Source: a virus. Taken from it: a stretch of DNA of 64,000 bases. Shown here piece by piece: positions 40,957 through 57,078 of this stretch. Each line of letters starts with the position of its first letter. Within the stretch, counting starts at the first letter, position 1. Under the pieces are notes generated by a model. That model was not told the origin of the DNA and searched no databases. It was given only the letters and a program-made list of their open reading frames with translations. Made by a program: the position numbers and the translations under genes. The stretch is from IMG/VR virus record IMGVR_UViG_3300047557_002769, positions 1 through 64,000 of that record; one strand, 5' to 3'.

Positions 40957-41652
40957 ATGGCTTTACCAAAACTAAATACACCAGTTTTTGAATTGAGTTT
41001 ACCTTCTACTAATCAAAAAATAAAGTATAGACCTTTTCTTGTTAAAGAGCATAAGACCTTGCTTGCAATGCAAAACGCAGATGATAATGAAGTTGCAAGA
41101 TTAGTAAGAGAGCTGGTCGATGTGTGTACGTACAATACTTTGGATATTGTTAAGCTACCTCACTTCGATGTAGAGTATATTTTTATGAATCTGCGTTCTA
41201 AGTCGATTGGAGAAAAGGTTGAGGTAATTGTTAACTGCCCATGTGGTAACAAAATTGACGCTTCATTTAATATTGACGAACTTAAAGTTGTAAAAAACTC
41301 AGAACATACTAACAAGATTATGCTGACAGATGATTTAGGCGTAGAGATGAGTTACCCTAATTTCGATACTGCATTAGGTATATTTAACTCCAACGATACC
41401 TCAAAAGCGGTTGATATGGTTGTTGATTGTGTGAAAGGTATCTTTAGTAAGGATGAATACTGGGATGCAAAGGAACAAACTAAAGATGAGCTTGAAGAAT
41501 TTGTTTTTAGTTTAACCAAACAGCAGTTTGAAAAGCTAGAGCAGTTCTTTGTTACGGCTCCTAAAGTTGTACAAGAAGTAAAAGCATACTGCGATCAATG
41601 CGGATTACATAACGAAACGAAGATAGAAGGATTAAGTAATTTTTTCGTATAA
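40957..41652 (+). CDS. gp26: Baseplate hub subunit gp26
   Basis: MALPK...YRPFLVKE.K.L, FDVEYIF..LRSKSIGE, CxxC near the end, ends GLSNFFV. Confidence 0.9.
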   Translation: MALPKLNTPVFELSLPSTNQKIKYRPFLVKEHKTLLAMQNADDNEVARLVRELVDVCTYNTLDIVKLPHFDVEYIFMNLRSKSIGEKVEVIVNCPCGNKIDASFNIDELKVVKNSEHTNKIMLTDDLGVEMSYPNFDTALGIFNSNDTSKAVDMVVDCVKGIFSKDEYWDAKEQTKDELEEFVFSLTKQQFEKLEQFFVTAPKVVQEVKAYCDQCGLHNETKIEGLSNFFV

Positions 41653-51456: not shown

Positions 51457-51985
51457 CAAACCAACTAGGAACTTCTCTTTTTTTCCAGCTTGCAAAAGAT
51501 TTTTTCGCACCTGTGTAATAATTACGGTAGCTATGGATCGCATTAGGTACTTTATATTCGTCGGGCATTGCCGGGGTAGGATCTGATAACCAGCCTTTAA
51601 TAGGAATATTATTAGGAGGAGTCTCAAACCATACCTTCATTCGCTCGGCCGAATGAACTTTATCGTACCTGTACGTATATTCTTTAAGCAACTCTACCCA
51701 GAGGGAGAATAGCCAACGGTAGTGAGTAATAGAAGCTCTTACCCAGATACCAGATGGATGCTTTACATGAGATGCTTTCCAGATATGTTGCTCCCTCTCA
51801 TCCTCAAGTAACCACCTCTGAATATTACGGTTATTAACCGTCTTACCGGTATACGGAACACCATCAAGAACACGATGCGCAGTTGACATAAGTTGCCCGT
51901 ATTCTAGTACCATCTTAACAACATGCTTATCTACATGCTGCGTAGCACAATCAGTAGGCTCATTACTTAAGAAAAAGATATTCAA
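51452..51985 (-). CDS. Pyrimidine-dimer DNA glycosylase-like protein
   Basis: MNIFFL...DKHVVKM.LE..QL.STAH, HP...W, EY..RY.K.H, AMP..YK. Confidence 0.75.
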   Translation of the reverse strand: MNIFFLSNEPTDCATQHVDKHVVKMVLEYGQLMSTAHRVLDGVPYTGKTVNNRNIQRWLLEDEREQHIWKASHVKHPSGIWVRASITHYRWLFSLWVELLKEYTYRYDKVHSAERMKVWFETPPNNIPIKGWLSDPTPAMPDEYKVPNAIHSYRNYYTGAKKSFASWKKREVPSWFV

Positions 51986-52176
51986 AGGGACCTCGTAAAT
52001 ACATCTTCAATCACGTAAACATTAAAAGAGACCTCTTCTTTTGTTTCACGCATAATTTTAGCTTTAGCTTCTTCAACTGCTGGTACACTTGCAAACACAC
52101 CTACATGCGTACTTTTTTTAGCGCGCCCAATTTTATCGAGAACGCTATACTCTAGATTATATACACAGCTTCTCAT
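51982..52176 (-). CDS. Hypothetical protein
   Basis: 64 aa, overlaps both neighbours by 4 nt. Confidence 0.65.
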   Translation of the reverse strand: MRSCVYNLEYSVLDKIGRAKKSTHVGVFASVPAVEEAKAKIMRETKEEVSFNVYVIEDVFTRSL

Positions 52177-52451
52177 GCTGCATTAATCCCTAGAGAAGTT
52201 TCACCAGTAAGTTGCTGGTACATTTGCTCGAACTCTTCATGATCAGCAACTTCGTTAGAGAAGTTTTGCTTATGATAAGTCTTTACCAGTTTACGGAACG
52301 TTTTCTTATTAAGCTGATATTCTTCGCTGATGTTTTTAATAGCTTCACGAATAAAATCTCGCTCACCTTCAATACGAGTCAACGAACTAGAAATTTCGAC
52401 CATACAGTCTTTAATAGCCTTTCGGGCTGCGGGATCTTGCGGCAAACTCAT
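52173..52451 (-). CDS. dsbA: dsDNA-binding protein, T4 DsbA-like
   Basis: EISSS..RIEGERD.I, KK.FRKL.K.YHKQNF..E. Confidence 0.8.
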   Translation of the reverse strand: MSLPQDPAARKAIKDCMVEISSSLTRIEGERDFIREAIKNISEEYQLNKKTFRKLVKTYHKQNFSNEVADHEEFEQMYQQLTGETSLGINAA

Positions 52452-52481
52452 TCACACCTCCAATAGTTAAACAATTATAAA

Positions 52482-52835
52482 TTAACGCCTCATCGATGCA
52501 ACATCTTTCGCTGCATCGTCGTTAAAGATAGGAACCAGATTAGACTTATGCATAGCAGCAATACCGACAATTTTATCACCGGTATATACCTTACGCTCTC
52601 CACAAGTCACCGCACCCTTAACATGCAAGTTAAGGCTAGGAACCGTAGCACTTTCTCTAACAGGGGATTTAGCATAGATAGTAGGCGCGCTAGACGTTTT
52701 AAGTTTCTTGCTTCGCGTCTTACCAGTAGGATCAATTCCGTACTTCGCACACCAAGCAGCATATTCGTCTCGCTCACGCTTAGACTTCTGCTTAGGCTTT
52801 ACCTTAGAAGAATAGTTAGTATAGATCAGACTCAT
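52482..52835 (-). CDS. Conserved phage hypothetical protein
   Basis: YTG..IVGIA.MHKSN.VP motif; GGAG RBS. Confidence 0.8.
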   Translation of the reverse strand: MSLIYTNYSSKVKPKQKSKRERDEYAAWCAKYGIDPTGKTRSKKLKTSSAPTIYAKSPVRESATVPSLNLHVKGAVTCGERKVYTGDKIVGIAAMHKSNLVPIFNDDAAKDVASMRR

Positions 52836-52860
52836 ATCAACTCCTTAACAAAGTTAAGAC

Positions 52861-52889
52861 ATTATATAATAAAACAATTATAATTTCAA
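52861..52889 (-). promoter_or_regulatory. Sigma70-like early promoter
   Basis: TTGAAA-N17-TATAAT. Confidence 0.75.
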
Positions 52890-52990
52890 GTTACGTTTGA
52901 TATTCTTTACATTATATGATCTCTCTGCAGAAGAATAGCTGGTATTAACAACCCAGCTTTCTTTTTTCTTAAACCACTTGCAGAGAGATT

Positions 52991-53455
52991 TTAAGCTAAA
53001 GGGGACTCTGCCTCTTTTGAAGCTTCTTTAGGAGGTAAAGCATTAGGGTAAGCCTCCCGTACAATATCTTCTTTTAGAGACTTATACTTCTTAGAAAGAT
53101 TTCTATCCTTAGCTAGACAAATAAGTTCAGCTTCTGATACGTGAAGCCCTTCAAGCATTTCGATAAAAAGACGTTCTTTTCTAATCGGAGTAATTTTCTG
53201 GTTAGGATCTAACCAAATGTAAAAACGTCGGTACTCTAGATGCAGGGTACTTTCATGATAGCCGATAGGCTTACCTGTTTCTTTACGGAAAGGTGGCTCG
53301 CCTTCCGGTAGACTCATTTTTACGTTTTTATCAAAGTTAATCCGCATTAGAGCTCGTAAAACAGGTGACTCATACTTTTTAAGCACGGCAACTTTTTCTT
53401 GTTTTGTCTTTGCCTTTTCAAACAAATCAAGAATCTCAGATTGTAGTAATGACAT
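52991..53455 (-). CDS. Conserved T4-like hypothetical protein downstream of rnh
   Basis: LPEGEPPF, RKERLFIEMLEGLH..EAEL. Confidence 0.8.
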   Translation of the reverse strand: MSLLQSEILDLFEKAKTKQEKVAVLKKYESPVLRALMRINFDKNVKMSLPEGEPPFRKETGKPIGYHESTLHLEYRRFYIWLDPNQKITPIRKERLFIEMLEGLHVSEAELICLAKDRNLSKKYKSLKEDIVREAYPNALPPKEASKEAESPLA

Positions 53456-54339
53456 TAAAACTCCTCTAGATGCTCCATTAGCATCTTCATTCTGTTAGCG
53501 ATAAAATAATCCAGAATCTTACTCTTGTCATTCTTTTGGTAAGATACGAAAGTATTTATGATACTGTCTTTAATATTGGAAGGAATGCAAGTAAAGTCTA
53601 CTAGCATCTTATTACGATCAAAGTTACGCTGAAAGATCACATCGGTAGGCCTACTAGAAGGGTTATTGAACCATTCAGTAAGTTTCTTTGAAGAAACTGG
53701 TCTCTGTCTTTCACCTTTAATAAAGGCATCATCCGGTGTAAGTACATTAGGAATACCATCCCCTGTATCACCCTTAATAATATGTTCAAAGACGTAAGCG
53801 TCAGGGGTTGAATCAGGTTTAATAAACTTCTTATGAACCGGGGAGAACTGCTTTACATGCTTATATTTTTGCAGTTGAATAAAGTCATGATCACCGGAGA
53901 TAATAAGTAGAGGATTGGGTTCTGAAATTAACGTACCTTCCTTTACATCATTATCCACACTCCACTCTGCTAAAGCTGCAATTACGTCATCAGCTTCAGC
54001 GCCTTCTATCTCAATAACTTTATACGGGAATACAGCTTTAATTTCTTCCTTAATTGTATTGATACTGTCAAAGATAAGAGCCCAATTTAGACCGGATTCT
54101 TCTCTGTTCTTTTTACGATTAGCCTTATAGTATGGGAAATGCTGTTTACGCCAATACTTCTTACTGTCACAAGCAAGAACTATGTCACCGTATTCCCGTT
54201 GAAATTTTACCTTATGACTCCTAATAGTATTAAGAACCATATGGCGGAGCAAATCTACCTCAATTTCAACGTCACGTCTATTACCAAGCTCAGCCATTAG
54301 ATTAGAAATAATGGTCTGGCTATAATCAATAATAATCAC
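53455..54339 (-). CDS. rnh: T4-type RNase H (5'-3' exonuclease)
   Basis: YWRK..FPYYKANR, EADD.I, SGDHDF.QL, GD.GDGIPN. Confidence 0.95.
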   Translation of the reverse strand: MIIIDYSQTIISNLMAELGNRRDVEIEVDLLRHMVLNTIRSHKVKFQREYGDIVLACDSKKYWRKQHFPYYKANRKKNREESGLNWALIFDSINTIKEEIKAVFPYKVIEIEGAEADDVIAALAEWSVDNDVKEGTLISEPNPLLIISGDHDFIQLQKYKHVKQFSPVHKKFIKPDSTPDAYVFEHIIKGDTGDGIPNVLTPDDAFIKGERQRPVSSKKLTEWFNNPSSRPTDVIFQRNFDRNKMLVDFTCIPSNIKDSIINTFVSYQKNDKSKILDYFIANRMKMLMEHLEEF

Positions 54340-55732: not shown

Positions 55733-56677
55733 CTATTTACGGAATACCTTATCCATAATCTCTTTTGGTATCTCATGAATTTTTGATCTTTGGATTCTTA
55801 CTTCGCTCGGATCCCTCTTTATACGATTATAGAATACTTTGTTCCATGTTCGTTTTTGAATAGGTTCTTCCGATTCTGGTTTAGATTCTGGTTCAAGAAA
55901 ATTTATTTCTTCTTCCGGTGCTTCAGGTGGTTTGTTACGTAGAGAAATATTAGCTGCAATCAATAGCAAAATAGCTAAAGGATCAAAGACAAATATCAAT
56001 GTAATGATGACCCATCGTACAGCTTTTTCTAATGTATTTACTTCTGGGTCGTCACCATAAATTAGTGCAGCAATATATTTTATAGGTCCGACCTCTGCTT
56101 CGACTTTTCGAAGTTCTGCTGCTTTCGGTGCTCTTTCTTCGTTAAGTCTTGCAATTGCGGATTGACTTGTTTCGATTTGCTTTGCAAGAGCTGCTCTTTC
56201 TCGTGCCTGTTGTTTTCGGATATTGACAGACTTATCGACACCGGATTCGGAGTTACCTCTGGTGAGGGCTTGGTTGACTTGTTGATCAAGTTGAATAAGC
56301 GCGGCACGAGCATCATTTATGTTGTCCCTTTCAACTTTGATTTTTTCGTCAATTATAGATAGTTTAGCTGATACTTCTCCGGTTGGCATCGCCTGGTCTA
56401 AATGGGCTTTAGAAAGATAGCCAAAAATACCCATTGAGGTAATAAGAGAAAGTATTACAACTGAACCCGTTAGATAATACTTAATGGATCTAGGTGAGAT
56501 ATCCCAATTACGGTACAGCCAAGATGCAGTGACAAGTTTGGCTAGCTCTAATACACCACCCATAACTGCAATAGAGATAGGTGCAGCTGCAAAAATAGCA
56601 ATTAAACCTACTACTGAAAAGTAAGCCGCGACCCCTGAAAGAGCCACTGCAGTAGCTAGCGTTAGAATTGAAAGCAT
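55733..56677 (-). CDS. Membrane protein with coiled-coil
   Basis: Three N-terminal TMs, coiled coil, GPIKYIA, C-terminal TM (IFVFDPLA). Confidence 0.8.
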   Translation of the reverse strand: MLSILTLATAVALSGVAAYFSVVGLIAIFAAAPISIAVMGGVLELAKLVTASWLYRNWDISPRSIKYYLTGSVVILSLITSMGIFGYLSKAHLDQAMPTGEVSAKLSIIDEKIKVERDNINDARAALIQLDQQVNQALTRGNSESGVDKSVNIRKQQARERAALAKQIETSQSAIARLNEERAPKAAELRKVEAEVGPIKYIAALIYGDDPEVNTLEKAVRWVIITLIFVFDPLAILLLIAANISLRNKPPEAPEEEINFLEPESKPESEEPIQKRTWNKVFYNRIKRDPSEVRIQRSKIHEIPKEIMDKVFRK

Positions 56678-57078
56678 TATAGTTTAACGTGACTTTTGTG
56701 AATCTTACACTGTATCCACGAGTTATACCACTTATCTCTATCTTCTAATACACAGCGTACGAATTGCTCTTTAGCTTCTAAGTAATTAGTTGTGCCTTTA
56801 TTAGGACACAAATGGATGATTTCTCTCTTAAAGTTTTCTTTGCCTAGTTGCTCGATATCTGCTTTGAGCTCATCAGAAGACGACCAATACTCTTTCCAGT
56901 CGGATTCTGCTTTGTATCTTTTTCGGACTTTGTTGACCTGTTTCCGTTTTGTTGACCAGAAGAATTTTTTCCCAATGTATTGTCTACCAGATAGCAGATT
57001 CGTGATGATGTATACAAAACCATAATATTCTCCAGGTGTCAAGAAAGGTTCATTATTATAAAGCCATTCACTATTCAT
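56677..57078 (-). CDS. GIY-YIG-like nuclease domain protein
   Basis: GFVYIITN...QYIGKK, ESDWKEYW.S, FKREI. Confidence 0.75.
   Translation of the reverse strand: MNSEWLYNNEPFLTPGEYYGFVYIITNLLSGRQYIGKKFFWSTKRKQVNKVRKRYKAESDWKEYWSSSDELKADIEQLGKENFKREIIHLCPNKGTTNYLEAKEQFVRCVLEDRDKWYNSWIQCKIHKSHVKL

Follow-up and report, generated by a model that had tools for sequence, protein, structure and literature searches.

Among the described systems closest to the locus considered here is the dnaX gene of Escherichia coli, whose tau and gamma products depend on an A_AAA_AAG heptamer followed by a 3' stem-loop, a signal of the same kind as the one proposed below and bearing the very heptamer found in most relatives of the gene under study. 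The dnaX signal also includes an upstream Shine-Dalgarno-like stimulator. Gene 10A/10B of phage T7 and the lambda-type G/GT pair likewise involve a -1 slip near the end of a phage open reading frame (ORF) that yields a C-terminal extension. In both, this extension is carried by a minority of the molecules. The accepted frameshifts of tailed phages lie nearly all in tail-chaperone or capsid genes, whereas the case presented here, in a gene for a protein of family DUF6433, lies in an early replication cluster. The annotated phage examples are, indeed, almost all tail chaperones (PRFect; PMC10885494). Outside these, an A_AAA_AAG-like heptamer and a downstream structure also serve to fuse the overlapping frames of OrfAB in IS3/IS911 (PMC4066793). 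Literature searches returned no publication on frameshifting in the DUF6433 gene, and no paper in the literature searched mentions the name 'DUF6433'.

The stretch of DNA analysed, hereafter the window, is the first 64 kb (64,000 nucleotides) of the viral record IMGVR_UViG_3300047557_002769, which in its complete form comprises 163,234 bp with direct terminal repeats. Judged from the sequence of this locus and of its relatives, the DUF6433 gene very probably uses programmed -1 ribosomal frameshifting, which would give two isoforms of 154 aa and approximately 192 aa. The features concerned are these:

53455-54339, minus strand: rnh (T4 RNase H / 5'-3' exonuclease; Pfam PF09293, PF02739)
52991-53455, minus strand: DUF6433 gene, 154 aa in the 0 frame (PF20025)
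52997-53003, minus strand: slippery heptamer C_CCU_UUA in the phase X_XXY_YYZ, read from the sequence
52990-52996, minus strand: 7-nt spacer holding the 0-frame stop TAA (52991-52993), read from the sequence
52919-52989, minus strand: putative stimulatory stem-loop, from folding, local controls and subclade folds
52878-52997, minus strand: -1 extension of 39 codons plus TAA (stop 52880-52878), basic, with predicted helices at both ends, from translation and conservation
52861-52889, minus strand: sigma-70-like promoter of the 117-aa gene, TTGAAA-N17-TATAAT, with 11 of 12 consensus matches
52482-52835, minus strand: next gene, 117 aa, phrog_27048, followed by dsbA
52173-52451, minus strand: dsbA, after the 117-aa gene

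The source virus is a T4-like myophage, and the locus belongs to that part of its genome which serves early replication and nucleotide metabolism. On the minus strand a 357-aa protein is followed in order by rnh, the DUF6433 gene, the 117-aa protein and dsbA, with phoH further on, and upstream of the rnh cluster lie genes for ribonucleotide reductase, thyX, dCMP deaminase and a segE-like endonuclease. A segE-like GIY-YIG homing endonuclease is encoded at 56677-57078 (minus strand), between membrane-protein and cytidylyltransferase-like genes. These are not the surroundings of a tail-assembly chaperone, the neighbours being rnh, dsbA, phoH and nucleotide-metabolism genes with no adjoining tape-measure gene, and the initial annotation was correct in assigning the signal to a non-structural phage gene. 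At 53455 the last base of the rnh stop codon is also the first base of the DUF6433 gene (TAATG), an overlap that suggests translational coupling of the two genes. At its other end, the DUF6433 gene is followed by the promoter of the 117-aa gene, whose -35 box is contained in the final codons of the -1 ORF, a layout that recurs in relatives. In the loci L013, L015 and L020, the -1 stop is followed by AAAAAGATGTTATAAT or AAAGGTGTTATAAT ahead of the -10 box. The cultured phages nearest for the DUF6433 gene are cyanophages, at less than 47% protein identity, and the carriers of the arrangement form an abundant group of uncultured T4-like phages that are represented mostly by metagenome assemblies.

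The 3' end of the DUF6433 gene reads TCC CCT TTA GCT TAA on the minus strand, and the positions initially reported for the gene end, the heptamer, the spacer, both stems and the 39-codon -1 frame all hold on the sequence. The outer stem is a perfect helix of 11 bp (52989-52979 with 52929-52919) and an inner stem of 6 bp is formed by 52958-52953 with 52942-52937. The segment 52880-53010 folds at -32.2 kcal/mol (z -3.46), a stability attained by none of 200 shuffled sequences, and the stem-constrained energy of -28.3 kcal/mol is to be set against -11.6 +/- 7.6 kcal/mol in 61 other windows of the same DNA, none of which reaches it. Complementarity between the loop and downstream sequence, as would be expected of a pseudoknot, was limited in 10 subclade members to weak AU/GU-rich matches in non-homologous places, which do not support one. 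The combination of heptamer and open frame is itself uncommon in this DNA, since 86 X_XXY_YYZ heptamers lie in frame within those ORFs of the window that measure 120 aa or more, the median length of the open -1 frame beyond them is 6 codons, and just two, the C_CCT_TTA site and a T_TTT_TTC at 41640, are followed by a -1 frame open for at least 39 codons. The second of these heptamers (41640-41646, plus strand) is situated three codons from the end of an ORF at 40957-41652, and the -1 frame there is open for 68 codons.

The mechanism that we propose would begin with a ribosome on C_CCU_UUA whose P and A sites hold tRNA-Pro and tRNA-Leu, respectively, at which point the stem starting 7 nt downstream would resist unwinding. 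A fraction of the ribosomes would then re-pair both tRNAs one base back, on CCC and UUU, and read a further 39 codons in the -1 frame, while unshifted ribosomes would terminate two codons later to give the 154-aa protein. Because simultaneous slippage makes the frame-0 Leu the junction residue, the long product would consist of residues 1-153 followed by the 39-aa tail. This basic tail would comprise a short amphipathic helix, a linker bearing an invariant Trp and a second short basic helix. In E. coli, C_CC.U_UU.A is among 18 under-represented heptamers that shift at >0.10% without a stimulator and A_AA.A_AA.R is in the top class, while C_CCU_UUA lies outside the top efficiency class (PMC4066793). 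The lower standing of C_CCU_UUA follows from the near-cognate nature of the A-site re-pairing from UUA to UUU (PMC4066793). What the sequences show is the anatomy of the signal, its conservation, coding selection on the tail and the lack of a start codon; that slippage occurs, at what rate, and what the tail does are points that we infer.

The -1 extension is a conserved protein-coding sequence under purifying selection. It spans 113 nt of the 155-nt gap that separates the DUF6433 gene from the 117-aa gene (52482-52835), and the third positions of its -1 codons are the most variable. Downstream of the 0-frame stop, the median dN/dS is 0.385 for the main clade (98% of pairs below 1) and 0.49 for the subclade of the window; between the window and its closest relative (L139, body 83% identical) dN is 0.23 and dS 2.26, a ratio of 0.10. 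The tail consensus of the subclade displays a first amphipathic helix, the invariant Trp, a Ser-Tyr-Ser region and a basic Asn-Val-Lys-Leu-Ile-Lys-Arg end, and the extension is basic, as the initial annotation had described the C-terminal tail of the longer isoform. Modelled alone, the tail yields two short helices at low confidence (pLDDT 61). A profile search of 1.84 billion representative proteins never found the tail fused in frame to the body, and in that collection it occurs only as ORF calls of 37-46 aa and as one call of 93 aa. The 93-aa call (P0007) was considered as an in-frame fusion and rejected, as it merely reflects a -1 frame that is open further upstream, in L033, with A_AAA_AAG in phase. 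The tail peptide had no match among 50,697 cultured phage records.

For the wider comparison, 122 loci with a DUF6433 gene were gathered from viral contigs, metagenomes and assemblies, a set to which 5 loci found by metagenome scanning and 8 closer relatives were added. The tail profile matches 45 of the 122 loci, every time in the -1 frame (43 strong matches, 2 weak) and never in frame 0 or +1. The same extension is present at about 45 distinct junctions of related phages. A body-domain tree unites the loci that bear the tail in a single clade (SH-aLRT 97), which also includes a few loci without it, so that the tail arose once and was lost several times; the constancy of the -1 frame is therefore partly a matter of inheritance. 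The tail is lost or truncated in L003-5, L023-26 and L142, and since several lineages have undergone such changes, it is dispensable in some phages. In L003-L005, whose body is 66% identical, the tail, the 117-aa gene and dsbA are all missing from this place and a homologue of ORF 51982-52176 stands directly after the stop.

Across 35 distinct junctions, an in-frame A_AAA_AAG, A_AAA_AAA or C_CCT_TTA is present in all except one small clade, and these heptamers sit inside the frame overlap, immediately ahead of the tail's first, conserved helix. Distances from heptamer to 0-frame stop take values of 9, 21, 27, 30, 39, 63, 66, 84 or 93 nt, and it is this range that indicates a 0-frame end that is free to vary in length after the heptamer while the -1 peptide is kept. 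The eight closer relatives, which together with L001, L042 and L122 make up the DNA set for the subclade of the window, have C_CCT_TTA/G at 9, 15 or 24 nt from the stop, with the exception of L145. In that locus A_AAA_AAG is found 21 nt before the stop and the same -1 peptide follows, including a Pro-Phe-Ser-Leu-Lys stretch, and on this sequence evidence L145 appears to link the two heptamer types. In all, C_CCU_UUR is present in about 10-11 relatives of the subclade, as C_CCU_UUA in about nine and as C_CCU_UUG in L143 and L146. Relatives drawn from protein collections reach 83% identity to the body of the window protein, and 20 of 28 such relatives (63-83% identity) end in x-Pro-Leu plus 0-6 residues, mostly one, before the stop, with variable residues around them; this ending is apparently the protein-level trace of C_CCU_UUR. 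A tail profile built from the main clade only still detects the tails of the subclade (E 2e-5 to 2e-3). The heptamer, the hairpin and the -1 ORF, for which the initial annotation had looked to homologues, are thus all three conserved.

The stem differs in character between the clades. In the subclade, minimum-energy folds pair offsets 8-18 after the heptamer in 10 of the 11 members with C_CCU_UUR, and the spacer measures 6-8 nt in 10 of the 11. The identity of the pairs varies, offset 8 being A-U in four members, G-C in five and C-G in one; offset 11 being U-A in three, G-C in five and C-G in one; and offset 17 being C-G in two, G-C in six, and U-G and G-U in one each. Relative to the window, L139 differs at one pair (U-A to C-G) and L140 at another (C-G to G-C), L141, L142 and L143 form quite different stems at the same distance from the heptamer, and the position of the 3' arm in the window is not homologous to that of the 3' arm in L001. 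The conserved feature is therefore a stem placed 6-8 nt after the heptamer, and not its sequence, with covariation in the subclade. These pairs derive from per-sequence folds, which favour pairing, and the local-control test serves as the safeguard: the window, L001 and L122 are each equalled by none of 36-61 local controls and L042 stands at 0.086, and when all clades are taken together, 16 of the 35 junctions rank within the bottom 5% of their local controls. In the main clade the stem begins 5-6 nt after the heptamer and its arms are codons of the conserved helix, encoding Phe-Phe-Glu and Phe-Lys-Glu by reverse-complementary codons. RNAalifold found no covariation among 20 main-clade sequences, the core of 6 bp being invariant, and because of this invariance and of the coding role of its arms the main-clade hairpin is without independent support.

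It is very unlikely that the -1 ORF stands as a small gene of its own, or is translated by termination and reinitiation, without ever being fused to the upstream protein. The reading draws on the L035 (2480-2641), L037 and L045 clade, in which an ATG that overlaps the stop (TAATG) opens the tail ORF, the first helix is lost and an A_AAG tetramer before the stop takes the place of any heptamer, as well as on L038, with an ATG and a Shine-Dalgarno-like sequence inside the ORF, and on the 37-46-aa ORFs listed by gene callers. Independent initiation is possible in the L035 clade, where the tail is possibly made as a free 46-aa peptide. For the window, however, it is excluded by the want of a usable start codon, the sole ATG, GTG or TTG in the -1 ORF being a TTG three codons before the stop. 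Of the heptamer-bearing junctions, not one has any of these codons before the heptamer or in the first 9 codons after it, eight junctions have none at all, and the starts that do occur fall downstream of the conserved first helix of the tail. A separate gene, moreover, gives no reason for an in-phase heptamer at shifting positions. Slippage could instead be the work of RNA polymerase, in which case an extra base would be present in the mRNA and the ribosome would not slip. Many relatives have runs of 7-8 A at the site, where one inserted A would give the same protein, but such runs are short for efficient polymerase slippage, C3U3A/G, the sequence in the window and 10 relatives, is no homopolymer and would not allow the same mimicry, and a covarying stem 6-8 nt downstream suits a ribosomal mechanism; this origin of the long isoform is accordingly highly improbable.

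There is equally little likelihood that the region is a conserved non-coding element, be it a processing site, an attenuator or a promoter-upstream element, in which the -1 frame is open by accident. This reading draws on the high stability of the hairpin, on the overlap between the last codons of the ORF and the -35 box of a strong promoter and, in the main clade, on a tail motif whose end corresponds to the DNA TTTGACAAA, perhaps conserved as such, with the terminal Phe-Asp-Lys codons reading TTGACA. The C-terminal end of the tail may, given these overlaps, be constrained as DNA too. Against a purely non-coding role stand dN/dS values well below 1, with many synonymous changes along the whole tail and not just in the promoter, and a frame that is open in 45 of 45 scored loci in AT-rich DNA where -1 frames close at a median of 6 codons. 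An Rfam scan of 52400-53500 gave sub-threshold chance matches only, so no known family is matched. An intrinsic terminator at 52919-52989 was also considered and rejected: a terminator scan calls none, and because the stem is followed by CAUAUAAUG and by no U-tract, the hairpin is not an intrinsic terminator, contrary to the alternative named in the initial annotation, a hairpin acting only as a terminator or processing site. An assembly error or a decaying pseudogene, in which a single frame has been broken by a 1-base error, is a general possibility in metagenome assemblies with nothing specific in its favour, and it is practically negligible in view of a two-frame layout that recurs in dozens of independent assemblies from different projects and of the lack of any in-frame version among 1.84 billion proteins.

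Programmed -1 ribosomal frameshifting remains the preferred reading, and the body would be common to both isoforms. The 0-frame product matches PF20025 over profile positions 1-115 of 115 (E 5e-34; 117.1 bits against a gathering cut-off of 38.9) and also matches phrog_461. An AlphaFold (AF2) model built from 15 homologues (pLDDT 79) finds its best Foldseek matches in the DNA-binding domains (DBDs) of T4 DNA ligase and other ligases, with TM values of 0.58/0.66 to 5wfy. Exhaustive comparison by VIA-align gave Z 13.9 to the T4 ligase DBD (5wfy; 130/132 residues, rmsd 3.4), and the next 11 matches were all ligase DBDs (Z 13.8-6.1) before a drop to Z 3.9, the top four (Z 13.9, 13.8, 13.6 and 10.5) representing phage and bacterial ligases. 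Sequence identity to 5wfy is only about 14%, a Pfam search found no match of the DUF6433 protein to PF04675, the ligase N-terminal family, and searches of PDB sequences with the DUF6433 body, in single-sequence and profile form, found no ligase. No NTase or OB domain is present on the chain, which is a stand-alone protein of 154 aa. In its predicted fold, the DUF6433 protein reads as a stand-alone relative of the DNA-binding domain of ATP-dependent DNA ligases. An ATP-dependent ligase was not detected in the complete 163,234-bp genome (PF01068, homologue of the L038 ligase), and the relatives L035 and L038 encode a ligase of 444-448 aa a few genes downstream.

Given this ligase-DBD fold and the position of the gene in the rnh-dsbA replication cluster, the DUF6433 protein would plausibly act as a nick- or DNA-binding accessory protein, to which the tail would add, or in which it would change, a contact. 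The T4 clamp-binding motif LDFLF (PMC6212786) prompted a complex prediction for gp45 of this phage, the sliding clamp, with the tail of the window; its score of 0.01 speaks neither for nor against binding. In L002:1953-2004 and other main-clade loci, the 0-frame C-terminus reads ...Lys-Lys-Lys-Ala-Ser-Leu-Asp-Ala-Ser. This main-clade terminus resembles the start of the clamp-binding segment of T4 DNA polymerase, ...Lys-Ala-Ser-Leu-Asp-Phe-Leu-Phe-Gly (PMC6212786). A more specific proposal, which we regard as speculative and rather unlikely, is that the frameshift sets a fixed ratio of two ligase-DBD-like nick-binding forms, of which only the long one docks through its tail to a component of the replisome or repair machinery, for instance the clamp, RNase H or, in phages that like this one encode no ligase, the ligase of the host. 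If this were true, the heptamer and the stem would have been exchanged in evolution while the ratio-setting device was kept.

The junction has consequences beyond this one genome. Gene callers miss the long isoform or call a spurious ORF of 40 aa in its place, which distorts annotation. The relatives also provide a natural series for the replacement of recoding signals, with two heptamer types, spacers of 6-8 nt and many stems serving one tail. DUF6433 is, furthermore, widespread in cyanophages and marine myophages, and a predicted ligase-DBD fold together with a regulated tail may be the first functional lead for the family.

Each of the known systems shares some of these properties and departs from the DUF6433 gene in others. 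T7 10A/10B and G/GT are virion or assembly genes, whereas the DUF6433 gene belongs to an early replication and repair cluster beside rnh and dsbA, and their heptamers and structures differ from those of the present site. In IS3/IS911, the second frame provides a large catalytic domain and possibly has its own start, in contrast to the tail of 39-55 aa without a start codon that follows the DUF6433 body. T4 DNA ligase (5wfy) and other ATP-dependent ligases share the DBD fold of the DUF6433 model but carry NTase and OB domains that are absent here. The closest parallel is dnaX, likewise a replication-linked gene whose isoforms share an N-terminal body and differ C-terminally, the differing part in dnaX being partner-binding, although the two proteins are not homologous. 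Slippage in dnaX yields the shorter product, since a stop follows at once, whereas in the DUF6433 gene it would yield the longer, and should the fixed-ratio proposal prove true, the gene would represent a phage counterpart of the tau/gamma logic of dnaX for Okazaki-fragment processing.
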